DNA from: a virus | Lineage: Duplodnaviria > Heunggongvirae > Uroviricota > Caudoviricetes | IMG/VR virus record: IMGVR_UViG_2579778842_000017 | Location: 1 to 64,000 of that record | Direction: 5' to 3' (one strand) | Length of the DNA stretch: 64,000 nt | Part shown: positions 6,411 through 50,219 of the stretch, in pieces | How positions within the stretch are numbered: position 1 is the first letter of the stretch | Layout: the number at the start of each line of letters is the position of its first letter | Made by a program: the position numbers and the translations under genes | The notes under the pieces: model-generated | Database searches by the model: none | What the model was told of the DNA's origin: nothing | Seen by the model: only the letters and a program-made list of their open reading frames with translations

Positions 6411-6438
6411 AAAAAACCCACCTGACGGTGGGTTTTAT
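6411..6438. terminator. Bidirectional Rho-independent terminator between convergent operons
   Basis: AAAAAACCCACCTGACGGTGGGTTTTATT: GC hairpin flanked by A-run and T-run. Confidence 0.7.
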
Positions 6439-6860
6439 TAGTGCTTGTATAGCTTGAACTCCCTGTCGAGCCATAAGACATAAAAAGTGGCTCCTATCTT
6501 ATAACCAACCATAGGTGCCTTAGAGCAAAATCTGAACGCAATGAAATCCACATCTTGAGTAACATGCTTAGGAATCGGAGCTTTTATCGCGTTTCTGGCA
6601 ATTTTTTCCGTCCCAAGCCCGTGTTTATCAGATTTTCGTATCTCATCCCATGACATCCGACTTAACCTGAACAGCCTATCTGCAAATGCTGCCTTTTCAT
6701 GCTTTTGGCAGCAATCTAGGCAATACCCCTTTTGTAGGTATCTAAGAGAAAATACAGGCGGACTTTTGTCTACATCATGAGATTCGTGATGGATAGAGAG
6801 GCCAACAGTAGCAGAGCTCTCTTTATCCCTCTGTTTTATTCTTCCCTTAACTCTAGACAT
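6438..6860 (-). CDS. Hypothetical protein, downstream partner of the Panacea-domain gene (candidate toxin/effector)
   Basis: 140 aa, basic, Cys cluster CLDCC; starts 5 bp after the stop of the upstream DUF4065 gene; no family recognised. Confidence 0.55.
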   Translation of the reverse strand: MSRVKGRIKQRDKESSATVGLSIHHESHDVDKSPPVFSLRYLQKGYCLDCCQKHEKAAFADRLFRLSRMSWDEIRKSDKHGLGTEKIARNAIKAPIPKHVTQDVDFIAFRFCSKAPMVGYKIGATFYVLWLDREFKLYKH

Positions 6861-17472: not shown

Positions 17473-19689
17473 TTACTGCTGTGGTTGTTGCTGAGTTGAT
17501 TTTTGCAGGATGCTGCTGATGTCCATGCGCTGCGCATGGCCTTGCGCCTGACTTTTCAGGACAAGCTCTGCATCAGCACGGGCATTATCTCCTTGCTGTT
17601 GCTGGAACTGTCCGAGCAGTTTCAGCGCCTCACGGATATCAGATTTTTGCTGGCTATCGGCAGATGCGAGGATTTTCACAACATTTGCCGCTGCAACCTG
17701 AGCATCCGTCTGTGCCTGGAATGCTTTAACCTGAATGGCTGCCTGCTCGTTCTGCGCTTTCTGCAATTCAGCCTGACCAGCAAGAAGCTGACCTTGCGCT
17801 GCAACCATAGCCGGATCTGGCTGACTGGCCTGTTGTTGTTTCGCCTGTTCAACCATCTGCTGTTCTTCAGGCGTTCTCGGCTTGATAACGCCAGACAGAA
17901 GCAACTGATTGCGGTTGTATTCTTTCAGGTCGTCCATCCCTTCGCCGTCCATATTGTCGAGAATCATCGACGATACAAGGTCGTGCTTCGGCGTTCCTGG
18001 TGGGATAAGTGCCAGCATGGAAAGTAACGACTTAACCGTTGCGTCACGGCGAGTAGCGAACGACTGACCGACATCGACAGTCACTTCATAGTTACCCTGC
18101 GAAAGGTCGTTAAGCGCGATAACCTGCCCTGTCTGACGGTCAACCACTTCACCAGTCATCAGCGCCACGTCATCGCTGCCGTCCTCATTAACGATACGCA
18201 TCGGCGTATCGCTGCCATAGACTTCACGCGCCATAGAAAGCCACACAACGCCAGCGCGACGCATAGATTTAGCCATGTTGTCCATGTAGATATAGGACTG
18301 CGTGTCCATCCGGTTAAAAATGCTATCAACGGTATCAGTAGCGACGTTGCTCGGCATGTTCTCAAGCTGCGACGCACCTGTAATTTGCTGAATAGCCGTT
18401 CCGGTGTACTGCAATAGCCCGGCAAGAGCTGGAGGCATTTGTGTCGGAGGCGTATAACTGCTGACCTGAGCCTGCGCAGTAATATCTCCGTTTTTGTTTT
18501 TCAGACTGACCATCGGCAGGAACGCCGGGCGCTTTTTGTTGCGCTCCGCCCAATGAGTGGCGAGAGGACCAGGAATCATGTCAACATCAACTACAGGAAT
18601 GCCATCACCGCCAGCCTGAGTAGCGTTATCTGCAATCATGGAAACCATCAGGTTCTCAAGACGCTGTGCATCCATCGCTTTTGCTGCGTGTCCTTCAATT
18701 CGCTCCTGATTATCAACAAATGAGCGACGCCCATATACCGGGATGAGAGGAATATGTTCGCCCGGAATACGCTTCGGTTCTTCCAGCCATTCAGCGCCAG
18801 ACAGAAGACCGCAATAAACGCGGCGCTTCTTCACCGTTCGCTCGCCAATCAGTTCGAATGCACCATCGGTCAGTTCGTCGACAATATCTTTTATTTGCTC
18901 TTCATCATAGATTGCCGTTTCTCCGCTAACAGGGTTGCGCCACGCCGTGATCTTCACCTTCTCTATGCGAACTTCGTAGTAGCGTCCAACATAGATGGCA
19001 TCTGGCGTTGACCAGTCATATTGAGTGCCAGTGTTATCACGAGAAAGGCTTGCCGCGGTGGAATCAGGGTATTCAGCCTCGAACGCTTTGGGCGTCATGG
19101 AGAACATTTCCATAGCCCACATAGCATCAGAGCGGTCATATTGCTTGCTGTCCTGATCAAAGAAGACGCATGTCGCTGGGTCGTAAACAGGAAGAAGGCT
19201 GATGCGTCGCTGCTCGTTACTCGGATCCATTTCATCTTCGTAATCGGCACACATGCGGAAACAACCGAATCCGCCCGTTACAGCATCATCAAATGCGTTA
19301 TCACACGCTTCGCCACCGGATGTTTCCTGATAGTCAGCGCGGAATTTGCCGTTCATCTTTTCGGCTAACGCTTCCGATGCCTTATCGTCCTTAGGCCTGA
19401 ATTTAACGCTGATGCGATTCTGTCGATACTCGCCAATGATGCGATCACATTCACGGGCAATCTTATTCAGTTCAAAGCGCGGGTAATGCTCAAACCTGCC
19501 TTCATCAAATGAGTAACCAGCGTTTGTGCTGCCTTCCCACTGTGCGCCGGACACCCGGACGAAACGTTGAGCCTCAATAATCTGCTCACGCATATCCTTC
19601 GTTGCTGACCAGGCATTATCAAAGTTGCACAGCACCTTGCGATGCCAGTCAGTCATCTTTCTATCATCAGCCATCATCCAACTCCGCAA
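17473..19689 (-). CDS. Portal protein (P22 gp1-like)
   Basis: 738 aa with Gln-rich C-terminal barrel extension; follows TerL. Confidence 0.85.
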   Translation of the reverse strand: MRSWMMADDRKMTDWHRKVLCNFDNAWSATKDMREQIIEAQRFVRVSGAQWEGSTNAGYSFDEGRFEHYPRFELNKIARECDRIIGEYRQNRISVKFRPKDDKASEALAEKMNGKFRADYQETSGGEACDNAFDDAVTGGFGCFRMCADYEDEMDPSNEQRRISLLPVYDPATCVFFDQDSKQYDRSDAMWAMEMFSMTPKAFEAEYPDSTAASLSRDNTGTQYDWSTPDAIYVGRYYEVRIEKVKITAWRNPVSGETAIYDEEQIKDIVDELTDGAFELIGERTVKKRRVYCGLLSGAEWLEEPKRIPGEHIPLIPVYGRRSFVDNQERIEGHAAKAMDAQRLENLMVSMIADNATQAGGDGIPVVDVDMIPGPLATHWAERNKKRPAFLPMVSLKNKNGDITAQAQVSSYTPPTQMPPALAGLLQYTGTAIQQITGASQLENMPSNVATDTVDSIFNRMDTQSYIYMDNMAKSMRRAGVVWLSMAREVYGSDTPMRIVNEDGSDDVALMTGEVVDRQTGQVIALNDLSQGNYEVTVDVGQSFATRRDATVKSLLSMLALIPPGTPKHDLVSSMILDNMDGEGMDDLKEYNRNQLLLSGVIKPRTPEEQQMVEQAKQQQASQPDPAMVAAQGQLLAGQAELQKAQNEQAAIQVKAFQAQTDAQVAAANVVKILASADSQQKSDIREALKLLGQFQQQQGDNARADAELVLKSQAQGHAQRMDISSILQKSTQQQPQQ

Positions 19690-21170
19690 GGTATGTTGTA
19701 GCTTGAGTAATCAATCTCTTTAGGATCTTTGATGTCTCGCATCTGTATTGCAAAACGCCTCATCATGTAGCCATAGCGAACAGCAGAAAGGATGTCGTCA
19801 TTTAGCTTGACGATCTTCCCGTTCTCATCGCGGTGATACAGACGAAACTCTTCAAAGAATGGCTCGCAGGTGTTAAATACCTTGAAACGACCGTCGAGCA
19901 TCATGTCGCGTATCTCTGCTATCCCGGGTTCGACCGCATTACCTCCATCAGGCCATGTTGCATGATCTGGCAACATGTCGAACCCAGCTTCGGCGTATTG
20001 TTCCTTGAGCTGAGCGCCGCCTCCCTTTTCGTGCTGATGCCCGTCATGAGGCCAAGCCGTAGGGGTGTTTTTGCTCCATGCTTTAACAGCACTCCATGCC
20101 TCTGTCGCCTTCTTCTGTTTGGCCTTCCAGACGCGAGAAAGATAAATCACGTCCTCGTCTTTATCCCACCAAAGCTGGATATGTGCCTGTGGGTGATCCC
20201 ATCCGAAGTCCATTGCATTGATGACGTAGAAGTGATCAGGACACTCGAACGGCTGACACTTAATCGTCTCTTCCGGTATCTGGAAGATTCGACCGCTACC
20301 CATCGTAGGAATACCGCGAGCACGCGCCTCTCTCTCATGCTCGGGATAGGATGCGATGATTTGCTCTTTCTGTTCGTCTGTGTAGTGCTCAGCGTCATAG
20401 ATGGTCATGTTGACCACTTTCTGCGACTTGCTGGGATTCTTCAGGAACTTGGTAACAACGTCAGACATCCCCATCAGCGGGGTAAACGTCAGAATTGAGA
20501 ATTGCCCGTATTTGTTGGTACGGGTAAGACCTTCGCCATAAATGCTGTATGGTGGCTCTTCGTCAAACCACACGCCGTGGATTGTGTCACCCTGCCAGCG
20601 AGCGCGGCCTTGCGAGTATGGTTTGAAGTAGCAGATTGAAATGCCATCTTCAACGCCATCAGCCGTGTGATGCTTAACCAGAAGATGATCAACAAGGTTC
20701 GGAAAGAAAGGAGACTTCTTCCAGCTAATGATGTCTTCTTTAGGTATGGAACCGTAGCCTGGCTCATCATTCTCTTCGATACGACCACACAGGATGCGTT
20801 GAGTCGTTTTGGTTACAGTCTCGTTTGTCTCGCCGCCAATCCAGAAGACAACAGGCTCATAGAAACGCTTACCTTTCCACTCACCGCCATATTTACCATC
20901 AGCAGGATAGCCTTTTGTGCCCGGGTAACGCCCGGTAAGGTGAAACGCGACTTCAGCAGCACCAGTAAATGACTTACCAAGCTGGTTACCAGCCATAAAA
21001 CATCGCTCTGGATAGTCATGCCCGGCGTCGATGAACTCACGCTGTTTGCTGTATGGCGTAAATTCATATAGCAGGTGTGTGTTACGGTAGTTCTCTTCTT
21101 CTTCGAGTAGCTCGAGCAATTCGATTTGCTCTTCGTCGCTCAAGTTATCAAGAATCGCGTCCAGTTCCAC
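19674..21170 (-). CDS. Terminase large subunit (P22 gp2-like)
   Basis: 498 aa; N-terminus [30 protein letters not shown], Walker A-like GNQLGKS. Confidence 0.9.
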
Positions 21171-21636
21171 GGTTGAATAGCTCCTTGATACGAGAGCGCC
21201 GCTTATCGCGATCTCCCTTATCAGGTGTCACGTCTTCAACTTGCGACTGCTCTTTGAGGCCCAAATCACGGGCGATGATGTTAGCGTTGAGAAGGTCAGC
21301 GGCTGCGCCAGAGAATTTCTGGTCGTAGATGATGTCTTCCGCTCGTGATGTGACGTCAGAAAAACCTTCCATTGACCGGAAGGTTCCCCATGTTTGCCTG
21401 GTGATATCAAGGAAGGTACACAATCCTGAAATAGTCATGGCTCGCATCTTAGGGACATTAGCCTTAATTATTTCTCCCTGATATGAAAATACCTTACCCT
21501 CCCATAGCGGGTTATCATCAGCCCACTCGAAGTATTCACAACAAGCAGCCCACAGCGCCTCAGGCGATTCGAATTTAGGATTTCGCCCATGACTACTGCG
21601 GGCCTCCCAAAATCGGTTGCCCTTTGGTGCTGCCAT
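21148..21636 (-). CDS. Terminase small subunit (P22 gp3-like)
   Basis: 162 aa starting [29 protein letters not shown], recognised as P22 gp3-type. Confidence 0.85.
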
Positions 21637-21715
21637 ATTGATTATTTCCCTTCTGCTTGCTTATCCCATTCATCGCGGAATTTGGATGGGTTGTCGAAAC
21701 CTTGAGTTGCCATGT

Positions 21716-21958
21716 TTATGCTCCGGTAGTGAACAGGTCTAACGCTTCCTTCGATTTACGCACCGCTTCGATTGTGCGGGTCGTGATATCTGAATTAGCG
21801 CCGCCTGACTGGAAGTGAATTTTGAATAGCTCAAGCTTCAGCTCGTCAGTGCCAATGAACTGAAATGCTTCTTCTGCGGCTGCGTTCTGGTTCATGACCA
21901 GTTTGTAAATCTCTAGCTGGAATTTCTGTTCTTCAGTCATGGGAATAATCTCTGCCAT
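21716..21958 (-). CDS. Small hypothetical protein between lysis cassette and terS
   Basis: 80-aa ORF in late-operon orientation. Confidence 0.5.
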   Translation of the reverse strand: MAEIIPMTEEQKFQLEIYKLVMNQNAAAEEAFQFIGTDELKLELFKIHFQSGGANSDITTRTIEAVRKSKEALDLFTTGA

Positions 21959-22260
21959 TGTTGGCTCCGTTTATCCGTTAAAAGGGATATCAGTTAAGTT
22001 ATCCCGTGTAGGGTATAAGCCATTGTCGAGACCACTCATTGAATGGTCTCTGCAATAACCGATGTCTTTCCATCAGTCCGCCACCACAAAGAATCTTTTT
22101 TGCCATAAGGCAGGAGGTTCATCTTTCAGTGGCTGTCAGTGTTATTTCCCCACTTTCTGGCTTGGGTTGTTTCGCTGTACTGCCGTAACTGGTTACCCAG
22201 AATAAATTCCGGTTTCATTATAAAGCCCACCCGTAGATAGGCTTTGTAATGCCTACATGG

Positions 22261-22863
22261 TTAAATGATTTGCCAGTCTTCAGCCATCAGGTCGCCAATG
22301 GATGGAACCCATGTAGCAAGGCGGTTCTGTGAGTTTTTCAATACAAGCGTGTCATTGAAAGTTGACTCGCCAACATATTCGCCAAAGCCATAACCCAACG
22401 CAGACGCTAATTTTTCCCCTTTCACGAGATAAACAAACTGGTCTTTCCCATTCCATCCTGCCCGCTGCAAACTTTTGCCCTGTTTTAACGCTTCCATGGC
22501 AAGGCCGAAACTTAGTCCTGATACCGGACGATAAGCCTTTTCGAATACTTCTTTTGGACTCCAGCTAACGTAGCCATCAAAGCGATCGGTGTTAGGTTTT
22601 CCGCCATCCAGATATTCAACCAGATAGCCTTCGTCCTCGCCGTTTTCTCCGGCAGGAAGCTGCCAGCCACGAAAATCGTTATATGCCTGTCTCGTCATCG
22701 GAAAGGCGTTAATCAGTTTTACGCCAATATGCTGGGTCATAAAATTACCTATGCAGTTGGGAATAAAAAGCCCCGCAAATGCGAGGCTAAATCCTGGTAT
22801 TTGTAATGAACTGGCTCTTATCTCAACGCAGCCCCTTACCGCGCGCCAGATGCTCAATATCAA
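22261..22863 (-). CDS. Hypothetical protein with C-terminal DUF2829-like motif
   Basis: motifs AMEALKQGKSLQRAGWNGKDQFVYLV and WVPSIGDLMAEDWQII; likely real start MTQHIGVKL near 22740. Confidence 0.55.
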   Translation of the reverse strand: MILSIWRAVRGCVEIRASSLQIPGFSLAFAGLFIPNCIGNFMTQHIGVKLINAFPMTRQAYNDFRGWQLPAGENGEDEGYLVEYLDGGKPNTDRFDGYVSWSPKEVFEKAYRPVSGLSFGLAMEALKQGKSLQRAGWNGKDQFVYLVKGEKLASALGYGFGEYVGESTFNDTLVLKNSQNRLATWVPSIGDLMAEDWQII

Positions 22864-22962
22864 GCATCAGCAATGAGATGTTTAATCTGGATTCACTCCA
22901 GAAGTGATCATCACCCTGTCTACAGAGCCAGATGTGAAGGATGATGAGTAAAATTATCGCTA

Positions 22963-23400
22963 TCATCGAAGGCATTGCGTCCTGATGTACTCCTGCAGGT
23001 AGTTAACCTGCGCGGTTATCCTGTCGATTCCACTTCGGAGACGGTAATAATTGAGTTCAGCATCTGCTGTAAGTCTTGGGCTTTCTCCATCGCCCATGCT
23101 GCTGGCTCCGGTCGTTGACTTTGCACAGATGGCGGCGACTTGCAGGCGCTTACGACCAGCAGAAACATCAGCACGGAGACTTTCGATAGTCGCGTTAGCA
23201 TCAGCAAGCTCCTTTGTGTATCTGGCGTCAAGTTCTGCTACATCACGTTGACGCTTCTGCATGTCAGCGATTGTGGATGTGGCCTTATCGCGCTGCTCTT
23301 TATAGGCGATGGCGTTATCACGGTAATGATTAACAGCCCATGACAGGCAGACGATGATGCAGATAATCAGAGCGGAGATAATCGCGGTTACTCTGCTCAT
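22963..23400 (-). CDS. Rz: i-spanin Rz
   Basis: 145 aa, N-terminal TM anchor, coiled-coil; follows lambda R-type endolysin. Confidence 0.85.
23016..23201 (-). CDS. Rz1: o-spanin Rz1 lipoprotein, embedded in Rz in another frame
   Basis: [20 protein letters not shown] lipobox followed by Pro-rich mature region. Confidence 0.7.
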
Positions 23401-23873
23401 GCCTCAATCTCTCTTACCGTTCCGCCAGCTTCTTTGAATTTTGCAATCAGGCTGTCAGCCTTATGCTCGAACTGACCATAACCAGCGCCAGGCAGTGAAG
23501 CCCAGATATTGCTGCAACGGTCGATTGCCTGACGGATATCACCGCGATCAATCATGGGTAAAGCACCACGTTCTTTAATCTGCTGCAATGCCACAGCATC
23601 CTGGCTTTTGGGAGAGAAGTCTTTCAGGCCAAGCTGCTTGCGGTAGGCATCCCACCAACGGGAAAGAAGCTGGTAACGTCCTGCTGCTGTTGATTTGAGT
23701 TTGGGGTTTAGCGTGACAAGTTTGCGAGGGTGATCGGAGTAATCAGTGAATAGCTCTCCGCCAACAATGACGTCATAACCATGATTCCTGGTTTTCTGAC
23801 GTCCGTTATCAGTTCCCTCTGACCACGCCAGCATATCGAGGAACGCCTTACGTTGATTATTGATTTCCACCAT
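23397..23873 (-). CDS. R: Endolysin, lambda R-type lytic transglycosylase
   Basis: 158 aa; [39 protein letters not shown] essentially lambda R. Confidence 0.9.
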
Positions 23874-24180
23874 CTTCTACTCCGGCTTTTTTAGCAGCGA
23901 AGCGTTTGATAAGCGAACCAATCGAGTCAGTACCGATGTAGCCGATGAACACGCTCGTTATATAAGCGAGATTGCTACTTAGTCCGGCGAAGTCGAGAAG
24001 GTCACGAATGAACCAGGCGATAATGGCGCACATCGTTGCGTCGATTACTGTTTTTGTAAACGCACCGCCATTATATCTGCCGCGAAGGTACGCCATTGCA
24101 AACGCAAGGATTGCCCCGATGCCTTGTTCCTTTGCCGCGAGAATGGCGGCTAACAGGTCATGTTTTTCTGGCATCTTCAT
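23857..24180 (-). CDS. S: Holin, lambda S-type (dual start)
   Basis: 107 aa [39 protein letters not shown]. Confidence 0.9.
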
Positions 24181-24848: not shown

Positions 24849-25472
24849 CTAACGTGTGACCGCATTCAAAATGTTGTCTGCGATTGACTCTTCTTTGTGG
24901 CATTGCACCACCAGAGCGTCATACAGCGGCTTAACAGTGCGTGACCAGGTGGGTTGGGTAAGATTTGGGATTAGCATCGTCACAGCGCGATATGCGGCGC
25001 TTGCTGGCATCCTTGAATAGCCGACACCTTTGCATCTTCCGCATTCTTTCTCAACAACTCTCCCCCACTGCTCTGTTTTTGCTATATCAACCGCACGGCC
25101 TGTACCGTGACAATCTCTGCATCTTGCGCCAGGCGTCGCGGCACTACGGCAATAATCCGCATAAGCGAATGTTGCGAGCACTTGCAGTACCTTTGCCTTA
25201 GTATTTCCTTCGAGCTTTGCCACACCACGGTATTTCCCCGATACCTTGTGTGCAAATTGCATCAGATAGTTGATAGCCTTTTGTTTGTCGTTCTGGCTGA
25301 GTTCGTGCTTACCACAGAATGCAGCCATTCCGAATCCGGCTTGTGATTGCGCCATCCCCATAGCAGCCATCACATCAGTACCGGAAAGAGAGTCAGAAGC
25401 CGTGGCCCGTGGTGAGTCACTCATCATCGGGCTTTTTGGCGAATGAAATTTAGCCACGCTTTCGAGTCTCAT
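24849..25472 (-). CDS. Q: Late antiterminator Q (lambda-type)
   Basis: 207 aa, Zn-finger Cys cluster (CRDCHGTG...CGRCKG); same length as lambda Q. Confidence 0.9.
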
Positions 25473-28864: not shown

Positions 28865-31258
28865 TCATACGTCCGCCCCTTGTGCATATCGTCTGCCACG
28901 CGCAGCAGGCGCATTTGATGCTGTGCAAATCTGTCTGGCTTCATCCTGGTCACATGCAACAAAGTGTCCGTTGCAGAACCGCTGGTAAACCGTACCAAGT
29001 GAGCCAAAACGGTTTTTCGTCACGATGATTTCAGCAAATGGCGCGGCGCTACTGTTCTCGTCATATACCGCTTCCCGATAGAGCATGATGATTGAGTCTG
29101 CGTCCTGCTCAATGCTTCCTGAATCACGCAAATCTGCGTTTGTCGGGCGTTTGTTTGGTCGCTTCTCAACATCGCGCGAAAGCTGACTTAGGGAGATAAC
29201 AGGCGTTTTCAAGTCTTTCGCCATCGCCTTCAGGCTTCCTGAGATGTGAGCAATTGCGAGGTCGTTGCGGTCTGCTTTCGGCTTCTCAATCAGGCCAAGA
29301 TAATCCGCCATGATGAGTGAGAGGTTTGGATTTTCCTGTTTGTGCCGTTCTGCGATTGAGCGTATTTCTTCGACCGATAACCGCGAGGCATCGACTACCC
29401 ATACATCCAAATCCGCTAGCTGACTCATGCCGTTAGCAACACGTGCCCAGCCCTCGTCATCCATCGATGCAGGATTTCGCAGTACGCTAACCGACATCCT
29501 CCCGGCGTTGGCAATGCTTCGCTCTGCAATCTGCAATGCGCTCATTTCCATTGAGAAAATCAATACCCCGCGCCGGACGTCAGAACCAGGAATAACGCGG
29601 CTTGCAACGCCTTCGGCAATCTTCAGCGCCAGTTCCGTATTGTGCGTAACGATGTAATCCGTTGTCACATAGAGATGGCTAGGATGGCTTACCATGATGC
29701 AGAGACACTCTTCTGGCTCAACAACTTCAACCGATTTGATACCCACACCAAGGTCGCCAAGCCTGTTAATCCCGAGATTTTTGCGTAAACGTGGTGAGTG
29801 AATTTGCTCTATCAAAGATGATGGCAACTTCATGCTGACCATGTGTGCATCAAGTCCGTCGTGCTTCTCTCCTTTGTACGTGTAAACTATTCCCGTCCTG
29901 CTGGATTCTTTGGCGGTTCCACCTAAAGATCTAACAAGCCTTACTAATCCTTTAGCTAATTTCTGACTGGATGAACTAAAGCGGATGCATCCGGACTTCT
30001 CAACCCAGCCATCTGTCTCGAGAAGGCCAGTTAAAACACCGGTACGTATTTCTTTGCTAGCACTAAAAATTTCTGCTGGGATTTCCTTCTCGGACGCACC
30101 TTTCCCGATCACCCCAATGCCACGTAGTTTGTCCAATAGTGGGTTCTTCTGGCCTTTTTGGTTGCTTATCAAATAATCATTCTCTCCTACCTTAACCAGT
30201 CGCAATGGTGCAATTGCATCACTCATGCGGCTCAGGACATATTCTTCCGAGTTGGTGAATTTGATGCCTTTTATCAACGAACCGTCACCAAGTAGAGCCC
30301 CAATAACCCAACCATCAAGGGGAATATTTTTACCAAAGTCTCCGGTCAAGGATGGCACTCTTATTCTTCCCTGATAACGTGTTTTTTGTAGCATCCCAGC
30401 CAGCGCATCAGTATCAACAACGCGTTTACCAGTAAATCTTGATGATGAAATTTCCCATAAGTGGTTGTCGGCACATTTCACGCTACGTCCGTCTTCAAAG
30501 GTGACTAAATATGTGAATTTCTTCCCTTGTGGGAAGACGCCAATTACCTCCGAAGGAAGCCCGTCTATTGACGCGATGCGATCGCCAATTTTGACTTCTC
30601 CGTGAGTAGTCCAGGTGCCATCTGCAAGTAAAATCCCTTCGCTTAGCGCCATTGCTTTCCCCATACCAGGACGAGCAGCGATTATCACCAGGTCTTCCGC
30701 GTTCATCCCTCCGGTGATGGCATCAAGTTCTTCGATTCCGGTCTTCAGGGTATCGGACTCTTCTCCGTTCCTCAGACGCCTGTCAAGCGTGTCAGTGTAG
30801 TCAGTAATGATTTCCCCTAACCGTACAGGTTTTACCTCGTCACGGGGCTTTCTGATAGCTGAGAGACGTTTTACAAGTTCATCCATCGCCTGACTCGATG
30901 CGTCGATGGTTCCGCTCTGAATTGGTTCACGCATTTCATCCATGATTTCCAGCACCAGACGGCGGTGATAGTTATCCGCGACCATTCCGGCATATCCCTT
31001 CAGGTTTGCGGCACTCGGGCAGTTTTTGCTGGTCATCAGGATTGACGTGAAATGCTCCTCTCCGCACGCCTCGGCAACCATCAGCGCATCGATTAGGTTT
31101 CTGTTTCTCGCCTGCTTGCGGATAACCTCGAAGGCTTTCCGGTAGAGCGGAATTGAAAACGCTTCCGGCTCCAGCGTTGCCAGAACGTCGCTGGCGGTTG
31201 GTGTTAATCCACCAATCAGCAGGCCACCGATAACGCTCGCTTCGATATCCTGTCTCAT
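28865..31258 (-). CDS. Replicative DnaB-like helicase (P22 gene 12-type) interrupted by an in-frame intein
   Basis: 797 aa; Walker A AARPGMGK split from [10 protein letters not shown] by about 339 aa; C-terminal DnaB-like RecA fold. Confidence 0.85.
29639..30655 (-). mobile_element. Intein with LAGLIDADG-type homing endonuclease domain inside the helicase P-loop
   Basis: in-frame insert [13 protein letters not shown]...YIVTHN|T; motifs [13 protein letters not shown] and [11 protein letters not shown]; ends HN followed by Thr; begins with Ala. Confidence 0.65.
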
Positions 31259-42093: not shown

Positions 42094-42101
42094 CATGTCA
42101 C
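42090..42101. repeat. Palindrome GTGACATGTCAC (copy 1 of 3)
   Basis: perfect 12-bp palindrome at the junction between early-left operon and second virion module. Confidence 0.6.
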
Positions 42102-42142
42102 GAGTAGATTATGCATGATGAATTTGATGGGTTTTGAATACT

Positions 42143-42168
42143 GCCGCCAACTATGGCGGCTTTATTTT
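42143..42168 (+). terminator. Rho-independent terminator
   Basis: GCCGCCAACTATGGCGGC then TTTATTTT. Confidence 0.65.
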
Positions 42169-42211
42169 GCATGGTACTATTACCACAACGGTAACTATTA
42201 CCACGGTGGTT

Positions 42212-42808
42212 ATGATGCCTGCTGAACCTAAAACCTATAAACGCAAATCAACGCAATTTAAGCCACTAACAGCAATGCAGGAGGCTTATTGCCAGTCATA
42301 CATCAAAACGCCTGAAAACCAGACTCAGGCAGCGATTAACGCAGGATTCTCCCCAAATACAGCGGCAGTTAAAGCCAGTGTCATGATGCGCGATGAACGC
42401 ATTCAAAAACGGATTGCCGAGCTGATGGAGGAGCGCAACAAACGAATGCGCGTCAGTGCTGATTACGTTCTCATGCGCCTGGTGGAGATCGACCAGATGG
42501 ACGTGATTGATATCCTCAACGACGATGGGAGTCTTAAGCCAATCCGCGAGTGGCCGAAAATCTGGCGCACTACGCTTAGTGGCTTTGATCTGTCATCGAC
42601 CATCATGAACATGAACGAGGATTCGATAGAGACAATCCTCAAAAAAATTAAATGGCCTGACAAGATGAAGAACCTCGAACTGATTGGTAAGCACGTCGAC
42701 GTTAACGCGTTCAAAGAGCGCCTGGAGGTTTCCGGCACGGTCACCATCGCCGACCGCATGGCCGCCGCCCGGCGCCGCGTCATAGAGCAGGCTGGTGGTG
42801 AAGAATGA
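42212..42808 (+). CDS. Terminase small subunit (second virion module)
   Basis: about 200 aa from MMPAEPKTYKRK, directly upstream of and overlapping TerL; ORF track extends to a TTG at 42134. Confidence 0.7.
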   Translation: MMPAEPKTYKRKSTQFKPLTAMQEAYCQSYIKTPENQTQAAINAGFSPNTAAVKASVMMRDERIQKRIAELMEERNKRMRVSADYVLMRLVEIDQMDVIDILNDDGSLKPIREWPKIWRTTLSGFDLSSTIMNMNEDSIETILKKIKWPDKMKNLELIGKHVDVNAFKERLEVSGTVTIADRMAAARRRVIEQAGGEE

Positions 42809-44280
42809 CAGCCGCAGCCATGTCGCCGGAAGAGCAACTCGTCGAGGATATCGCCTCGTTCACGTATGACCCGCTGGGCTATGCGCTGTATGCGTTTCCG
42901 TGGGGCGAGGAAGGCACAGAGCTGGCGCACGCCACCGGTCCGCGTAAGTGGCAGGCAGACGCATTCCGCGAGATACGCGATCACCTGCAGAACCCGGCGA
43001 CGCGTCACCAGCCGTTGATGCTGGCCCGCGCATCCGGCCACGGCATCGGCAAGTCAGCTTTCATCTCAATGCTGATTAACTGGGGCATGTCCACTTGCGA
43101 GGATTGTAAGGTCGTGGTGACCGCCAACACCGACAACCAGCTACGAACGAAGACCTGGCCGGAAATTATCAAGTGGTCGAACCTTGCTATCACGAAAGAC
43201 TGGTTTACCTGTACCGCTACCGCGATGTACAGCAATGACCCTGGGCACGACAAGCGGTGGCGAGCTGACGCAATCCCCTGGTCTGAGCACAACACTGAGG
43301 CATTCGCCGGATTACACAATGAGCGCAAACGCATCATCGTGGTATTCGATGAAGCGTCGAACATTGCGGATCTGGTGTGGGAAGTTGCTGAGGGTGCGCT
43401 TACGGACGAAGACACTGAGATTATCTGGGTGGCGTTCGGAAACCCGACACGTAACACCGGGCGTTTCCGCGAATGTTTCCGCAAATATAAACACCGCTGG
43501 AAAACTGCACAGATTGACAGCCGGACGGTGGAAGGTACTAACAAGCAGCAATTACAGAAATGGGTTGATGACTACGGGGAAGACAGCGACTTCGTTAAAG
43601 TCCGTGTGCGCGGCATATTTCCTGATGCATCTGAATTGCAGTTTATCCCTACCGGTCTTACTGACGAGGCAATGAAACGGGTGGTAACTGCTGCGCAGGT
43701 GGCACATGCTCCGGTGATAATCGGCGTTGACCCGGCATACTCCGGCGTTGATGACGCTGTGATATACCTGCGGCAGGGGCTGCACAGTAAGGTGCTGTGG
43801 ACTGGCAACAAGACCACTGACGATCTGATAATGGCGAAGCGTATCGCTGACTTTGAAGACCAGTACCAGGCTGACGCAGTGTTCATCGACTTCGGTTACG
43901 GAACCGGTCTGAAATCAATCGGTGACGGATGGGGTCGTACATGGCAACTTGTTCCGTTCGGTGGCGCGTCTACTGACCCGCAGATGCTCAACAAGCGTGG
44001 GGAGATGTTCAACTCATGCAAGACATGGCTGAGGCTGGGCGGCATGCTGGATGACCAGGAAACAGCGGACGACCTGTCTGCGGCAGAGTACAAAGTTCGA
44101 GTGGACGGTAAAATCGTTATCGAACCGAAGGAAGATATCAAGGAGCGGCTTGGGCGTTCGCCTGGTAAAGGCGATGCGCTACTGCTGACGTTTGCTTTCC
44201 CGGTGTCAAAGCGCCTGCGACTTCCCGGGCAGCAGAACCAGCAAGGCAAGGCCATCACAGATTACGATCCCTATGCTTAA
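42805..44280 (+). CDS. Terminase large subunit (second virion module)
   Basis: 491 aa; Walker A-like ARASGHGIGKS, nuclease-like C-terminal half. Confidence 0.85.
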   Translation: MTAAAMSPEEQLVEDIASFTYDPLGYALYAFPWGEEGTELAHATGPRKWQADAFREIRDHLQNPATRHQPLMLARASGHGIGKSAFISMLINWGMSTCEDCKVVVTANTDNQLRTKTWPEIIKWSNLAITKDWFTCTATAMYSNDPGHDKRWRADAIPWSEHNTEAFAGLHNERKRIIVVFDEASNIADLVWEVAEGALTDEDTEIIWVAFGNPTRNTGRFRECFRKYKHRWKTAQIDSRTVEGTNKQQLQKWVDDYGEDSDFVKVRVRGIFPDASELQFIPTGLTDEAMKRVVTAAQVAHAPVIIGVDPAYSGVDDAVIYLRQGLHSKVLWTGNKTTDDLIMAKRIADFEDQYQADAVFIDFGYGTGLKSIGDGWGRTWQLVPFGGASTDPQMLNKRGEMFNSCKTWLRLGGMLDDQETADDLSAAEYKVRVDGKIVIEPKEDIKERLGRSPGKGDALLLTFAFPVSKRLRLPGQQNQQGKAITDYDPYA

Positions 44281-44330
44281 TCCGCTTGAGGGGATAATGT
44301 CGTTGATATCCTCTGATGAGGATAAAACAA

Positions 44331-44354
44331 AGCCAGCTCATAGGCTGGCTGTTT
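44331..44354 (+). terminator. Rho-independent terminator after TerL
   Basis: AGCCAGCTCATAGGCTGGCT followed by GTTTGTG. Confidence 0.5.
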
Positions 44355-44366
44355 GTGATATGTCAC
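44355..44366. repeat. Palindrome GTGATATGTCAC (copy 2, one mismatch)
   Basis: immediately after the TerL terminator. Confidence 0.5.
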
Positions 44367-44370
44367 GGTG

Positions 44371-44742
44371 TTATTGCTCGCTTAACTTCTGCTTCAGCAA
44401 GTAACCTTCAAGCATCCAGATTTTGTTTACAGCATTCTGTCGGGCAATCTTCCGACCAATTTCTGCATCAAAGTTTTCCGGGCTTGCACAGGCGCTCTCT
44501 CCGGTGACGGTGAAGCCGTTGCGCAGCACCAGGACGCAGAACGTCAGCAGAGAAAGTGATTCGTGCGGCTGGTAGTTTACCTCTCCGCCAGTATGTTTCG
44601 CTTTTATGGCTACGCCAAAGGCACCATCTTCTGCTGTGAAATATGCCTCCTGAGCAATAATGCTCTCGATATGGTCTGGCGTAACGCGCGGCGCGGCTAA
44701 ACCTTTAGCCTGAATTTCAGATTCAATGTCTTTGTCACTCAT
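44371..44742 (-). CDS. Hypothetical moron protein between terL and portal
   Basis: 123-aa minus-strand ORF inserted in an otherwise plus-strand virion operon. Confidence 0.6.
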   Translation of the reverse strand: MSDKDIESEIQAKGLAAPRVTPDHIESIIAQEAYFTAEDGAFGVAIKAKHTGGEVNYQPHESLSLLTFCVLVLRNGFTVTGESACASPENFDAEIGRKIARQNAVNKIWMLEGYLLKQKLSEQ

Positions 44743-44943
44743 AGTCTAATCTCACCTTAAAAATGCCCGGCGAACCGGGCGAACTGGAAGCAATGAGTTA
44801 TGCCTTCCGTGGCTGTACGGGTTTACAGCATGAAGTCATCGCAATGGCGTCCTGCTGTAAAAAGGGCGGTGATAGTCCTTCAAGGGAAACCATCACCGCC
44901 AAGCCCCTGGAACTTCTGGCATCACGGTCCTTAGGCGTGATTC

Positions 44944-45020
44944 TGGCGTGGCATGCAGGATTCGAACCTGCGACCAACCGCTTAGAAGGCGGTTGCTCTG
45001 TCCGACTGAGCTAATGCCAC
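44944..45020 (-). tRNA. Phage-borne tRNA-Arg (anticodon UCU)
   Basis: minus strand reads GTGGCATTAGCTCAGTCGGACAGAGCAACCGCCTTCTAAGCGGTTGGTCGCAGGTTCGAATCCTGCATGCCACGCCA: 7-bp acceptor stem, anticodon loop CTTCTAA, 3' CCA. Confidence 0.8.
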
Positions 45021-45447
45021 AACGCTGAGAGCACTTAGCCTGTTAAGGCACCACACTTTGTCGCGGCTCCATAAATGCTCTCATCGTTGTACCCTCGTCT
45101 CTTCCGAGGCGTCACACCGAATCGCCGGGATGGTGAATCCCCGTGCGCGGCATAAAACCGCTCGACTTGCACATTCCGGCTACCTGGTTCGTTTGCCCGA
45201 GCAAGGGAGGGTGCCCCTTAAACGTATCCAGACCGCTATCGGCGCATGTGCCATACGCCGTACTGCTCAAAATAAAAGCTCACTCCACCTGTTCAATTTA
45301 ACGACAAGCCAGTCAGGTTAATAACAGGAATGCACTCTATGCTTACCTGAAAGGTAATAATTCGTGCGTTAAATGTCAACTACCTACGATAAATAAATCA
45401 TATGTGGTTAAATTGGTAATAATTTAATTGCGTACGGAGTCATTGAT

Positions 45448-45654
45448 ATGTGCATGGGTAGCTCACCATCAGTGCCTGCAACACCAGAAGTTCAGGCAGC
45501 ACCACAGGAGCAGGATGCCGCCGTTGTTGATGCCCGCGACGAAGAAACTCGTCGCCGTCGCGCTGCTGCTGGTCGTAGTTCTACGCTGCTTACCGGTTCT
45601 CAGGGCGACACATCAACCGCTAATACCAGCGGTAAAACGCTGCTTGGTCAGTAA
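45448..45654 (+). CDS. Small hypothetical protein upstream of portal
   Basis: 68 aa; GGAGTCATTGA-ATG initiation region nearly identical to that of the portal gene. Confidence 0.4.
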   Translation: MCMGSSPSVPATPEVQAAPQEQDAAVVDARDEETRRRRAAAGRSSTLLTGSQGDTSTANTSGKTLLGQ

Positions 45655-45668
45655 CCGGAGTCATTGAA

Positions 45669-47348
45669 ATGGCGGAAACAACTAAAGAGCGATTGAACAA
45701 ACAGTTCGCACAACTTGAAAGCGAGCGTCAGTCGTTCGAGCCGCACTGGCGCGAGTTGAGTGATTACATCAACCCGCGTGGTTCCCGCTTTCTGACTTCT
45801 GAGGTCAACCGTAACGATCGACGCAATACACGCATTATTGATTCGACCGGGACTATGGCGGCGCGCACTCTCGCCAGCGGCATGATGTCAGGCATCACAA
45901 GCCCCGCGCGTCCGTGGTTTCGCCTGGCTACGCCAGATCCTGAAATGATGGATTATGGCCCTGTTAAGTTGTGGCTTGAGGCGGTGCAGAACCGCATGAA
46001 CGATATGTTCAATAAGTCGAATCTCTATCAGTCGCTGCCGCAGTTATACGGAAGCCTCGGCACATACAGCACTGGTGCAATGGCAGTGCTGGAGGATGAC
46101 GAGGACATCATTCGCACAATGCCATTCACGATAGGCAGTTACTACCTGGCTAACTCACCTCGTGGCAGTGTGGACACCTGTTTTCGCAAGTTCTCTATGA
46201 CTGTTCGTCAGCTTGTTCAGGAGTTCGGGCTAAATAACGTCAGCGAATCCGTAAAAAGCATGTGGGAAAGCGGCACCTACGAGAAGTGGATTGAAGTGAT
46301 GCATTCGGTTTACCCGAACATTGACCGCGATACATCGAAGCTGGATAGCAAGAACAAGCCATTCAAATCGGTTTATTACGAGGTTGGTGGCGATAACGAC
46401 AAGTTGTTGCGTGAGTCCGGATTCGATGAGTTTCCAATTATGGCTCCGCGCTGGGAAGTTAACGGCGAAGATGTTTATGGATCATCATGCCCGGGCATGC
46501 TGGCGCTTGGACCTGTTAAGGCATTGCAGCTTCTCCAGAAGCGCAAGTCGCAGTTGATTGATAAAGCCACCAATCCGCCGATGGTTGCTCCGATTTCCCT
46601 CAAGAATCAGCGTGCCTCCCTTCTTCCTGGCGACATCACGTATATCGATCAGATTACTGGTCAGGATGGTTTCAGGCCTGCTTATCTGGTTAACCCCAGT
46701 ACAGCAGATTTGGTGGCAGACATTCAGGACACTCGTCAAATCATTAACAGCGCCTACTTTGTCGATCTGTTCATGATGTTGCAGAACATCAATACCCGCT
46801 CGATGCCTGTTGAAGCGGTGATCGAAATGAAAGAAGAAAAACTTCTGATGTTGGGGCCGGTTCTGGAGCGTCTGAACGACGAATGTCTTAATCCTCTCAT
46901 TGACCGCGCTTTCTCGATGATGGTGCGTAAAAACATGTTGCCGCCACCGCCTGACGCGATGGAAGGCATGCCCCTGAAGGTCGAATACATTTCCGTCATG
47001 GCTCAGGCGCAGAAGTCTATCGGCCTGTCCAGTCTGGCGTCCACGGTTAACTTCATTGGTCAACTTGCGCAAGCGAAACCAGAAGCTCTCGACAAACTCA
47101 ACGTTGATCAGGCGATCGATGCATTCGCTGATATGTCCGGAGTGTCTCCAACCGTCATTGTTCCGCAGGAACAGGTTGAGCAGGCTCGCCAGCAACGGGC
47201 ACAGCAACAACAGCAGCAACAAATGATGGCCATGGGGATGGCGGCGGCACAGGGTGCCAAGACGCTAAGCGAAGCTAAAACTTCGGATCCGAGTGTTTTG
47301 TCAGCTATGGCGAATGCAGTTAGTGGTCAGGGTGGGCAATCACAATGA
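45669..47348 (+). CDS. Portal (head-tail connector) protein, T7-supergroup-like
   Basis: 559 aa; C-terminal QQQQQQMMAMGMAAAQGAKT...AMANAV resembles T7 gp8 C-terminus; follows TerL. Confidence 0.75.
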   Translation: MAETTKERLNKQFAQLESERQSFEPHWRELSDYINPRGSRFLTSEVNRNDRRNTRIIDSTGTMAARTLASGMMSGITSPARPWFRLATPDPEMMDYGPVKLWLEAVQNRMNDMFNKSNLYQSLPQLYGSLGTYSTGAMAVLEDDEDIIRTMPFTIGSYYLANSPRGSVDTCFRKFSMTVRQLVQEFGLNNVSESVKSMWESGTYEKWIEVMHSVYPNIDRDTSKLDSKNKPFKSVYYEVGGDNDKLLRESGFDEFPIMAPRWEVNGEDVYGSSCPGMLALGPVKALQLLQKRKSQLIDKATNPPMVAPISLKNQRASLLPGDITYIDQITGQDGFRPAYLVNPSTADLVADIQDTRQIINSAYFVDLFMMLQNINTRSMPVEAVIEMKEEKLLMLGPVLERLNDECLNPLIDRAFSMMVRKNMLPPPPDAMEGMPLKVEYISVMAQAQKSIGLSSLASTVNFIGQLAQAKPEALDKLNVDQAIDAFADMSGVSPTVIVPQEQVEQARQQRAQQQQQQQMMAMGMAAAQGAKTLSEAKTSDPSVLSAMANAVSGQGGQSQ

Positions 47349-47641
47349 CAGATTACGAAGACGATCAACTGAAAGAAGAAAACGCCCGTAAGCAACGTGA
47401 CATGGCACAGCGTGAAATTGATGACATTCGCTTTGTCATGAGCAGTGAACAGGGGCGTCGCGTTGTCTGGTCTGTGCTGGAGAAAGGCCGTGTGTTTTCC
47501 GCTATCTCTCCGATGGATGCTATGGCAATGGCATTTAATGAGGGGCAACGCAATCTGGCGCTGGAACTGTTTCAGCGCGTTATGGCGCATTGCCCTGAAC
47601 AGTATTTGAAGATGGCCAAAGAGGCCAGTGAACAGGAGTGA
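47345..47641 (+). CDS. Hypothetical head-module protein
   Basis: 98-aa ORF overlapping portal stop. Confidence 0.5.
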   Translation: MTDYEDDQLKEENARKQRDMAQREIDDIRFVMSSEQGRRVVWSVLEKGRVFSAISPMDAMAMAFNEGQRNLALELFQRVMAHCPEQYLKMAKEASEQE

Positions 47642-48339
47642 TCATGAATTTATTTGAGCGTTTGCTGTATCGCCGTCTTTGCAATGAGCAACCAGTCGAT
47701 GGTGGAGCAGCTCCGGCTGCGTCAGAACCATCAGCGCCTGCAGGTGATAACCATGCTCCAGTTGGTGATCCATCACAACAAGAAGGTGATAAGCCGCAAC
47801 CTGTTGCTGATGGCGATAAACCTGCTGATGACAAAAAGTCTGAAAGCGATAAGCAGGGTGAAAAAAAGGACGGCGATAAACCGGATGGTGCGCCGGAGAA
47901 GTACGAGTTTCAGGCTGCCGAAGGCGTAGAGCTGGATACAGAAGCGTTGAAGGAATTCGAGCCGGTGGCGCGAGAACTAAACCTGACCAACGAGCAAGCG
48001 CAAAAGCTGGTTGATGCTTATCCGAAGATTCTGGCAGGTGTTCAGCAGCGCCAGGCAGAAGCCTGGCAGAAAACAACCGAGCAGTGGGCTGCTGATGTAA
48101 AAGCTGACAAAGAAATCGGTGGCGACAAGTTGATTTCTAACCTTAGCGCCGCACAGCGTGCGCTTGACCAGTTCGGGACACCTGAACTCAAAGAATATCT
48201 GAACACCACCGGGCTGGGTAATCACCCTGATCTGGTCAAAACGTTCGTGAAAATCGGAAAGGCGATGTCTGAAGATGGCATGGTCACCGGTGGTAATGAA
48301 GGCCAGCGTAGTGCGGCCGAAGTGCTCTATGGCAAATAA
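47638..48339 (+). CDS. Putative scaffolding protein
   Basis: 233 aa, acidic Pro/Ala/Asp-rich N-terminal region then helical part; between portal and capsid. Confidence 0.55.
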   Translation: MIMNLFERLLYRRLCNEQPVDGGAAPAASEPSAPAGDNHAPVGDPSQQEGDKPQPVADGDKPADDKKSESDKQGEKKDGDKPDGAPEKYEFQAAEGVELDTEALKEFEPVARELNLTNEQAQKLVDAYPKILAGVQQRQAEAWQKTTEQWAADVKADKEIGGDKLISNLSAAQRALDQFGTPELKEYLNTTGLGNHPDLVKTFVKIGKAMSEDGMVTGGNEGQRSAAEVLYGK

Positions 48340-48347
48340 GAGAGGAA

Positions 48348-49340
48348 ATGACAATGGCTGTTAAAGGCTTAACTGCGCTAACGCTGGCTGACTGGGGTAA
48401 GCGCGTCGATCCAAACGGGAAAGTCGATAAGATTATCGAGCTTCTCGGTCAAACTAACCCGATCCTTCAGGATATGCCTTTTGTCGAAGGGAACCTTCCT
48501 ACCGGACACCGAACCACCATTCGTTCTGGTTTACCTTCAGCTACCTGGCGTTTGCTGAACTATGGCGTACAGCCAAGCAAATCAACCACAGTGCAGGTAA
48601 CCGATTCCGTTGGCATGCTGGAAACCTATGCTGAAGTCGATAAGTCACTGGCTGATCTGAACGGCAATACCGCCGAATTCCGCCTGTCTGAAGACCGCGC
48701 ATTTATTGAAGCGATGAATCAGCAGATGGCGCAGACGCTATTTTATGGTGATTCCAGCGTTAACCCTCAGCAGTTTATGGGACTGTCCTCCCGCTATTCC
48801 AGCCTGTCTGCGGGTAATGCTCAGAACATCATTGATGCTGGTGGCACGGGTACAGATAACACCTCCATCTGGTTAGTGGTGTGGGGCGAAAACACCGTGC
48901 ATGGCATCTTCCCGAAAGGGCAGAAGGCTGGCATTCAGATGGAAGATAAAGGCCAGGTGACACTGGAAGATGTTAATGGCGGCAAGTACGAAGGCTACCG
49001 TACCCATTACAAATGGGATAACGGACTTGCTCTGCGTGACTGGCGTTATGTTGTTCGCATTGCAAACATCGATGTCAGCAATCTTTCAGAACCTTCCTCT
49101 GCCGCAAATATTGCGAAGTTGATGGTTAAAGCACTGCATCGCATTCCAAATCGTGGCATGGGTCGCCCGGTGTTCTACATGAACCGCACTGTAGGCCAGG
49201 CTCTTGATCTGCAATCTCTGGAGAAAACATCTCTGGCGATCAGCGTAAAAGAGACAGAAGGCGAGTGGTGGACTTCATTCCGTGGTGTACCAATCCGTGA
49301 AACTGATGCGCTTCTGGAAACAGAAGCCCGCGTGGTGTAA
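48348..49340 (+). CDS. Major capsid protein (second virion module)
   Basis: 330 aa, strong RBS, position after scaffold. Confidence 0.7.
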   Translation: MTMAVKGLTALTLADWGKRVDPNGKVDKIIELLGQTNPILQDMPFVEGNLPTGHRTTIRSGLPSATWRLLNYGVQPSKSTTVQVTDSVGMLETYAEVDKSLADLNGNTAEFRLSEDRAFIEAMNQQMAQTLFYGDSSVNPQQFMGLSSRYSSLSAGNAQNIIDAGGTGTDNTSIWLVVWGENTVHGIFPKGQKAGIQMEDKGQVTLEDVNGGKYEGYRTHYKWDNGLALRDWRYVVRIANIDVSNLSEPSSAANIAKLMVKALHRIPNRGMGRPVFYMNRTVGQALDLQSLEKTSLAISVKETEGEWWTSFRGVPIRETDALLETEARVV

Positions 49341-49391
49341 CGCCTGTTATTAACCTGTGGGTCGTAACAGACCCACTAATGGAGAAAGAAG

Positions 49392-49829: not shown

Positions 49830-49830
49830 G

Positions 49831-50175: not shown

Positions 50176-50186
50176 GCCTCGCGAAT

Positions 50187-50212
50187 CAGACAAGGGGCTT
50201 CGGCCCCTTTAT
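50187..50212 (+). terminator. Rho-independent terminator
   Basis: AAGGGGCTTCGGCCCCTTTATTG. Confidence 0.65.
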
Positions 50213-50219
50213 TGCAGGA

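Follow-up and report, generated by a model that had tools for sequence, protein, structure and literature searches.

A Tad2-family gene with a conserved N-terminal module in the lysis-terminase slot of a P22-like Escherichia coli prophage, probably encoding an immune-signal sponge

The window analyzed here is a 64,000-nucleotide stretch of Caudoviricetes DNA (positions 1 to 64,000 of the IMG/VR record IMGVR_UViG_2579778842_000017). It holds a P22-like (Lederbergvirus) E. coli prophage whose late region is read on the minus strand of the window, and within this region lies a phage-encoded gene of the Tad2 family. Comparison of the junctions with phage Sf6 revealed that the gene and an upstream hairpin form a cassette bracketed by 9-bp direct repeats. 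The features of the cassette, in the direction of reading, are:

22800-22808, minus strand: upstream 9-bp direct repeat CATTACAAA, at the Sf6 junction
22761-22788, minus strand: intrinsic-terminator-like hairpin AGCCUCGC-AUUU-GCGGGGCU, then UUUUUAUU, from a consensus scan, the sequence and the RNA fold
22261-22740, minus strand: Tad2-family coding sequence, 159 amino acids plus stop, with the ATG at 22740 and the TAA at 22263-22261
22519-22740, minus strand: N-terminal domain (N-domain), residues 1-74, beta-alpha-beta-beta-alpha
22264-22518, minus strand: Tad2 (PF11195/DUF2829) domain, residues 75-159, from Pfam, the SPO1 Tad2 match and Foldseek
22351-22422, minus strand: variable insertion within the Tad2 domain, at residues 107-130 (KGEKLASALGYGFGEYVGESTFND), corresponding to SPO1 residues 36-59
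22243-22251, minus strand: downstream 9-bp direct repeat CATTACAAA, at the Sf6 junction

The original prediction, made from the DNA alone, took the gene to be an open reading frame (ORF) at 22261-22863. This frame exists (minus strand, 200 amino acids, TTG start), and both motifs quoted for it, AMEALKQGKSLQRAGWNGK and DLMAEDWQII, are present in its translation, but the coding sequence is shorter. It almost certainly starts at the ATG at 22740, giving a protein of 159 amino acids. The 200-residue reading is opposed by the starts of the aligned homologs, 49 of 49 of which begin at, or within ~10 residues of, the methionine at 22740, with the 41-residue extension in none; by the RefSeq annotation of the identical 480-nucleotide coding sequence in E. 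coli ETEC4085 (WP_001535928.1, “DUF2829 domain-containing protein”); and by the extra 41 codons themselves, which overlap a 50-amino-acid ORF and include the terminator-like hairpin. A Shine-Dalgarno-like AGG(T) is located 6-7 nucleotides 5' of the ATG.

DUF2829 had been proposed from the motifs, and a Pfam search agrees. PF11195, which Pfam now calls “Tad2-like”, matches residues 77-159 with 78.3 bits (cut-off 25; E 6e-22), covering positions 2-73 of the 73 in the profile. Among PDB sequences searched with phmmer, the best match is SPO1 Tad2 (8sme/8wje; E 5e-25, 91 bits, ungapped over 85 residues), ModTad2 is second (E 2e-18, 70 bits), and AcrIIA7/HgmTad2 and SptTad2 give weaker, partial matches. 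The domain is identical to SPO1 Tad2 at 40 of 85 positions (47%) and to ModTad2 at 37 of 85. In all, 2928 homologs of the window protein were found at E ≤ 1e-3. The protein is also matched by phrog_872 (3.6e-69); a “transcriptional regulator” label (phrog_643, E 4e-5) was set aside as a weak secondary match below it, and scans with PADLOC and NCBIfam returned no matches for the protein.

The fold gives the same picture. An AlphaFold2 (AF2) model of the monomer, calculated from 50 homologs, has a mean predicted local distance difference test score (pLDDT) of 89.4 and superposes on the crystal structures of SPO1 Tad2 and ModTad2, as the proposed relationship to Tad2 would have it. All 24 Foldseek matches in the PDB at E ≤ 0.001 are Tad2 structures, with template modeling (TM) scores, normalized to the target, of 0.8-0.93 to 8SME/8SMF/8WJE. 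The Tad2 domain is modeled with helices at residues 78-86, 108-114 and 148-152, and strands at 91-93, 102-106, 131-135, 141-143 and 156-158. These sequence matches and the model support the assignment of residues 75-159 to the Tad2 sponge family, as a close relative of Tad2.

In SPO1 Tad2, the residues contacting 1''-3' glycocyclic ADP-ribose (gcADPR) or its ordered waters are W25, N26, I63, T65, D67, H71, W73, S76, T78 and D79 (Yirmiya et al.). We mapped these onto the window protein on the assumption that the SPO1 numbering equals the chain position minus one, which reproduces W25, N26, W73 and D79:

SPO1 W25, window W96: pocket core
SPO1 N26, window N97: pocket core
SPO1 W73, window W144: pocket core
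SPO1 S76, window S147: pocket core
SPO1 D79, window D150: pocket core
SPO1 I63, window L134: pocket periphery, conservative change
SPO1 T65, window N136: pocket periphery
SPO1 D67, window Q138: pocket periphery
SPO1 H71, window A142: pocket periphery
SPO1 T78, window G149: pocket periphery

Thus, all five core residues are identical to SPO1, and the periphery carries one conservative and four non-conservative changes. Each of the core residues is kept in 144-165 of 168 homologs, and positions 65/67/71/78 sort into discrete signatures among the same 168, with T-D-V-T as the majority. The variable insertion resembles that of SPO1 both in its length of 24 residues and in sequence (ASALGYGFGEY in the window, ASDFGFGFGEY in SPO1). 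In other Tad2 proteins this insertion forms a cyclic-dinucleotide pocket (PMC10680739); cyclic-dinucleotide binding requires insertions of 35-41 residues, and SPO1 Tad2 bound no cyclic nucleotides (Li et al.). Judged by sequence, the ligand of the window Tad2 domain is likely to be an ADP-ribose-derived signal of Toll/interleukin-1 receptor (TIR) enzymes, with 3' cyclic ADP-ribose (3'cADPR, 1''-3' gcADPR) as the most likely first guess. The exact ligand could instead be another signal, because four peripheral pocket residues differ from SPO1 and tested Tad2 homologs block Thoeris I, II, IV, CBASS or Pycsar through sequestration.

Comparison with the structurally characterized Tad2 proteins places the window protein nearest to SPO1 Tad2 (Gp34.65; PDB 8SME/8SMF/8SMG/8WJE), with which it has in common the domain, the fold, the insertion length and type, and the core W, N, W, S and D. 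SPO1 Tad2 differs in that it is a single-domain protein of 89 amino acids from a lytic Bacillus myovirus, whereas the window protein, from a temperate E. coli podovirus, has an additional N-domain of 74 amino acids. Leucine takes the place of F44, the residue that stacks in SPO1 Tad2. ModTad2, a sponge for the histidine-ADP-ribose (His-ADPR) of type II Thoeris (PDB 9EIB/8V3E), belongs to the same family (44% identity) and has the A-T-W at SPO1 positions 71-73 in common with the window protein, but it is single-domain, its insertion differs and makes an additional pocket, and it carries T, D and S at positions 65, 67 and 78. HgmTad2/AcrIIA7 and SptTad2 (PDB 8KBI-8KBM, 8WJC, 8WJD) share the DUF2829 core and the W-N motif of the gcADPR pocket; they differ in their cyclic-dinucleotide-binding insertions of 35-41 residues, and their match is limited to the first ~36 residues of the domain.

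The N-terminal half of the protein, overlooked by the original prediction, is a distinct conserved domain and not a leader. The AF2 model of the N-domain has a pLDDT of 96.5 and the order beta(10-16)-alpha(17-24)-beta(37-43)-beta(57-62)-alpha(63-69). Residues 1-9 have no assigned element in this monomer model, and its three strands would be compatible with a swapped first strand. Within the family of the window protein, the N-domain is conserved above the Tad2 domain, with a mean pairwise identity of 70% versus 55% and 18 of 69 invariant columns versus 9 of 83. Its invariant aromatic and charged residues are located in loops, and the window copy is net acidic (8 K+R versus 11 D+E). We found no Pfam, NCBIfam or PDB match to the N-domain: a Pfam search of 22 N-domain sequences at E ≤ 10 gave noise only, and a profile search of the PDB returned no matches, and no structural relative was found there. 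A search of BFVD retrieved only homologs without known function.

N-domain homologs are nevertheless abundant, comprising 1566 clusters at E ≤ 1e-3, of which 838 reach E ≤ 1e-10, in a phmmer search of 1.84 billion representatives. In the top 149 representatives, the N-domain is N-terminal in 108, internal in 23, C-terminal in 12 and essentially the whole protein in 6. The recurrent partners in a Pfam scan of these 149 are Tad2-like (51), crAss001_48/PF21825 (38) and Phage_gp49_66/PF13876 (22), and no others recur. Local re-analysis of the partners gave 50 Tad2 domains, a cluster of 33 members, 23 Acb4 domains and one of RyR-Tad type; on our own reading of the sequences, the 33-member cluster is probably of PF21825 type. 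PF21825 is Sequestin and PF13876 is Acb4, both proven sponges, and Sequestin was found through its fusions to Tad2 and Acb4 (Tal et al.). The gene neighborhoods of two stand-alone N-domains included one contig with an Acb4-family gene ~3 kb away and were otherwise uninformative. Similar designs of two small modules per polypeptide in an anti-defense locus are seen in Acb4-Tad2 of Pasteurella phage Pm86 and Acb4-Sequestin (Ab09 gp59); in those fusions both halves are proven sponges, whereas the second module of the window protein has no known activity.

RyR Tad (Pectobacterium phage CB1 gp68) has an N-domain that proved homologous to that of the window protein in a single BLASTP comparison (34% identity across 67 residues, E 7e-6), with the common motifs PMT...EGYLV.Y...SWSP..VF. 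The RyR Tad copy is divergent and lacks W26, P29 and the D45-N50 loop. In RyR Tad, the domain (residues 1-67 of the window protein) is likewise followed by a gcADPR-sponge domain, but the sponge is all-helical with a ryanodine-receptor Repeat12-like fold, not Tad2. RyR Tad forms a dimer whose protomers exchange their first strands and thereby complete a five-stranded sheet; its N-terminal fragment by itself had no anti-Thoeris-I activity, and the N-terminal fold is described as having an unknown function and often forming a single ORF (bioRxiv 10.64898/2026.06.04.730250). The N-domain is an unnamed, very conserved module accompanying four unrelated sponge folds (Tad2, Sequestin, Acb4 and RyR-Tad). 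By analogy with RyR Tad, given its strand swap and the lack of anti-Thoeris-I activity in its isolated N-terminal fragment, we consider that the N-domain most likely serves to pair protomers by a swapped first strand. Other small anti-defense proteins were considered as the identity of the domain and rejected, since none has a PDB match to it and the published descriptions differ: Lockin assembles as hexameric beta cogs and does not occur in sequenced phages, Acb5 is described by W38/R10/H61 and mainly from Actinobacteria phages, and TadIV-1 is a two-helix dimer from T4.

The original prediction had placed the gene in the gap between lysis and terminase genes, and the neighboring genes bear this out, with the lysis cassette on one side and the packaging genes on the other:

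24849-25472, minus strand: Q antiterminator
23857-24180, minus strand: holin
23397-23873, minus strand: endolysin
22963-23400, minus strand: Rz, with an embedded Rz1 lipoprotein frame
22823-22975, minus strand: 50-amino-acid ORF of the Sf6 gp65 / Kapi1_042 type (phrog_11822, E 5.5e-38)
21716-21958, minus strand: DUF2560 gene, the downstream neighbor, preceding the small terminase gene (PF10834, E 1e-43)
21148-21636, minus strand: small terminase
19674-21170, minus strand: large terminase, with the portal beyond

The 50-amino-acid ORF at 22823-22975 is conserved and annotated in Sf6, Kapi1 and ETEC4085, and is the upstream neighbor of the cassette, outside it. The left end of the prophage holds the integrase, a P22-type tailspike head-binding domain and the antirepressor. 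By megablast, 334 phage records share parts of 21600-23450; because just two of them cover at least 80% of this interval, we regard the lysis-terminase slot as mosaic. Sf6 represents the empty site: it has no Tad2 gene, and the sequence equivalent to window position 22800 is joined straight to that of 22251 through one CATTACAAA. The hairpin, which ends ~20 nucleotides 5' of the start codon, is inside the mobile cassette. As regards the features expected of a moron, presence and absence between collinear phages is seen, a consensus promoter was not found on the strand of the gene, and the sole terminator-like hairpin is upstream of the gene.

The gap that had been noted downstream of the gene is present as a 302-bp stretch at 21959-22260, but the original prediction missed that it contains an empty slot for a second sponge gene, of the Acb4 family. 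More than 200 lambdoid phage records share the stretch at 93-98% identity, among them HK97, HK022 and HK620, all three without a Tad2 gene. The HK620 record annotates a small hypothetical gene here, hkbL, and many others leave the stretch unannotated; HK97 and HK022 are cos phages. An Rfam scan of 21500-23100 found nothing meaningful (best E 0.9). Between 22037 and 22061, where the window has 23 unrelated bp, ETEC4085 and Huey have a segment of 429 bp that includes a “Gp49 family” gene. Sf6 has gp66 at the equivalent place, and the Sf6, ETEC4085 and Huey genes all match PF13876/Acb4 at E ~3e-35. The lysis-terminase slot of P22-like phages is thus a putative anti-signaling island that takes the N-domain+Tad2 cassette and/or an Acb4-family cassette.

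The same two gene families adjoin each other in phage N4 (EF056009), in which coding sequence gp48 is of the Acb4 family and the adjoining gp49 has the N-domain+Tad2 architecture, and this region is an anti-signaling hotspot of N4-like phages (2026 preprint). N4 gp49 is 160 amino acids in length, with an N-domain 54% identical to that of the window protein and a PF11195 match at E 8e-24. Its Acb4-family neighbor has its counterpart in the slot genes of ETEC4085 and Huey. It differs in coming from a lytic phage of the Schitoviridae, where it has the replication genes on one side and the virion RNA polymerase gene on the other. In the EF056009 record (locus L004, 2109-2962), the gp48 label is on the PF13876 member and gp49 on the N-domain+Tad2 gene, so the Pfam name “N4 Gp49” mismatches the numbering of that record.

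The Tad2 alleles of P22-like phages are themselves mosaic. Kapi1_043 (locus L002, 2045-2566) and Huey_0064 (locus L001, 997-1497) nearly match the window protein over the N-domain and the first Tad2 helix, and then carry unrelated insertions in the Tad2 domain, of 38 amino acids in Kapi1_043 and 31 in Huey_0064; the pocket periphery of both is SPO1-like. Kapi1_043, from Escherichia phage vB_EcoP_Kapi1, occupies the same slot, has the same start codon and two-domain architecture, and is ~96-100% identical over the upstream region and N-domain, the upstream region being 96% identical including the hairpin. It differs in the middle of the Tad2 domain, which is unrelated (a 38-residue versus a 24-residue insertion, 70% overall identity), and in its periphery (K-T-A-D ... 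S-Q-T-D versus N-Q-A-G in the window). The 38-residue insertion of Kapi1 is within the 35-41 range reported for cyclic-dinucleotide-binding Tad2 proteins.

Kapi1_043 is reported to show the strongest expression of any Kapi1 prophage gene under all conditions, and was proposed to be an anti-defense protein of Tad2-like type, in a study whose host lacks Thoeris (BMC Genomics 2026, PMC12922286). These lysogenic expression data concern the Kapi1 allele alone. The position of the hairpin just 5' of the start codon sits oddly with the very high lysogenic expression reported for this ortholog. The exact window allele is present in 45 of 5426 complete E. coli genomes, and is chromosomal every time. 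Homologs of the same architecture are found in Klebsiella, Raoultella, Enterobacter, Citrobacter, Vibrio, Pseudomonas, Rhizobium and crAss-like phages. The Huey and Mimir124 orthologs are labeled “anti-CRISPR protein” in their records, a label that stems from automated PHROG/Pharokka-style annotation.

Elsewhere in the window, three further loci were noted. The gene for a DnaB-like replicative helicase (28865-31258, minus strand) encodes 797 amino acids with a LAGLIDADG_3 match at residues 405-454 and a DnaB_C match in two stretches, which together suggest an intein inside the prophage helicase. At ~42100-62000 on the plus strand lies a second phage-like structural module beyond the P22-like prophage, possibly a second prophage in tandem, with a T7-type head-to-tail connector (45669-47348, PF12236, E 2e-186) and several ORFs of 600-860 amino acids without a Pfam match. 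A 140-amino-acid ORF (6438-6860, minus strand), flanked by the tailspike region and the injection genes, has a weak PADLOC match to NsnC (E 2.7e-7, residues 40-137) and no Pfam match at E ≤ 1e-5.

As a whole, the locus is best explained by a gene that probably encodes a phage anti-defense “sponge” of the Tad2 family, and the immune-signal sponge put forward in the original prediction is supported by sequence, profile, structure and context. Residues 75-159 would assemble into a tetramer like that of SPO1 Tad2, with pockets between the subunits, in which an ADP-ribose-derived alarm molecule produced by bacterial TIR enzymes would be bound and sequestered. The likeliest signal would be the 3'cADPR of type I Thoeris, or alternatively another Thoeris-type molecule. 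With the signal sequestered, the host effector would never be switched on and the phage would replicate. Residues 1-74 would act as an accessory module, pairing protomers via the swapped first strand. Several points weigh against this interpretation. The changes T65N, D67Q, H71A and T78G alter the pocket lining that contacts adenine or holds ordered waters, the resulting N-Q-A-G pattern belongs to a minority N-Q-(A/P)-G subtype (~13-14% of the 168 homologs), and Tad2 specificity is known to shift between clades. The 74-residue N-terminal addition might alter tetramer assembly. Strong expression of a sponge in the lysogen would be odd for a purely lytic-cycle counter-defense, and a promoter scan found no sigma-70 consensus promoter on the strand of the gene. 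The literature holds no binding or infection assay of the window protein or, as far as we found, of any N-domain+Tad2 protein.

The same peripheral changes raise the question of whether the sponge mechanism operates on a different primary ligand, namely the His-ADPR of type II Thoeris, the N7-cyclic ADP-ribose (N7-cADPR) of type IV Thoeris, or a cyclic mono- or dinucleotide of Pycsar or CBASS. The N-Q-A-G periphery departs from the SPO1-like T-D-V-T majority, the “ATW” at positions 71-73 is common to the window protein and the His-ADPR binder ModTad2, and individual Tad2 homologs inhibit Thoeris II or IV, Pycsar or CBASS. We nonetheless think a different ligand rather unlikely, given that SPO1 Tad2 outscores ModTad2 (91 versus 70 bits) and that the insertion is SPO1-like (24 amino acids, GFGEY), while SPO1 Tad2 shows no cyclic-nucleotide binding and the dinucleotide binders have 35-41 residues. 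A separate question is whether the N-domain is an anti-defense effector itself, that is, a previously unnamed domain whose own target would be a further immune signal or a host immune protein, making the protein a bifunctional inhibitor like Acb4-Tad2 and Acb4-Sequestin. The N-domain is fused to three sponge families in the top 149 representatives (Tad2 51, Sequestin 38, Acb4 22) and also to the RyR Tad sponge domain, and the same fusion logic led Tal et al. to Sequestin. Conservation above that of the Tad2 domain, invariant aromatic and charged residues in loops, and occurrence at N-terminal, internal, C-terminal and stand-alone positions point the same way. Against an own target, the N-domain of RyR Tad alone showed no activity against Thoeris I and has strand-swapped dimerization as its solved role, an objection tempered by the divergence of that copy (34% identity, D45-N50 loop absent). 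The domain is also net acidic, unlike the positively charged pockets typical of sponges, and has no structural relative in the PDB. On balance, we regard an effector role of the N-domain as possible but doubtful.

Two further explanations fare worse. That the protein is an AcrIIA7-type anti-CRISPR might be concluded from the labels on its orthologs in some phage records and from the DUF2829 domain it has in common with AcrIIA7. However, Cas9 inhibition by AcrIIA7/HgmTad2 or other Tad2 homologs was not reproducible, and AcrIIA7 was shown to be a sponge (Li et al.), a view also taken by Yirmiya et al. The AcrIIA7 match is moreover weak, covering the first ~36 residues of the domain only (E 1e-5 to 4e-6). 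E. coli is not known to have type II-A CRISPR-Cas, which also counts against an anti-CRISPR role, and we judge it extremely improbable. The top rank of Kapi1_043 in prophage gene expression in the lysogen would fit a moron that buffers a housekeeping messenger, such as cyclic di-GMP (c-di-GMP), for the benefit of host or prophage and not for counter-immunity in lytic growth, and c-di-GMP is a very tightly bound ligand of some Tad2 proteins (reported at 0.23 nM for SptTad2). The long insertion needed for c-di-GMP is absent from the window allele, whose SPO1-like insertion belongs to a type that bound no cyclic nucleotides in SPO1 Tad2, and the expression evidence comes from Kapi1 only, which leaves such a housekeeping role highly unlikely.

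Part of this picture was already known, in that Pfam names the family “Tad2-like” and the Kapi1 ortholog is in print as a Tad2-like candidate. The corrected gene model, the minority pocket signature, the anatomy of the cassette and the recognition of the N-terminal module go beyond it. A gene recorded as “DUF2829 domain-containing”, “hypothetical” or, mislabeled, as “anti-CRISPR” thereby gains a specific, testable role as a putative signal sponge. The two-cassette island of P22-like phages parallels the hotspot recently described in N4-like phages. Tad2 alleles that have the N-domain and first helix in common and differ in insertion and periphery provide a natural series for mapping ligand specificity. 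The conserved N-terminal module merits experiment; if it does have its own target, it would be a marker for new sponge families among fusion partners that are still unannotated. Finally, if the lysogen expresses the sponge constitutively, this would bear on whether prophages weaken the signaling immunity of their hosts or trip sponge-sensing systems, such as Panoptes.

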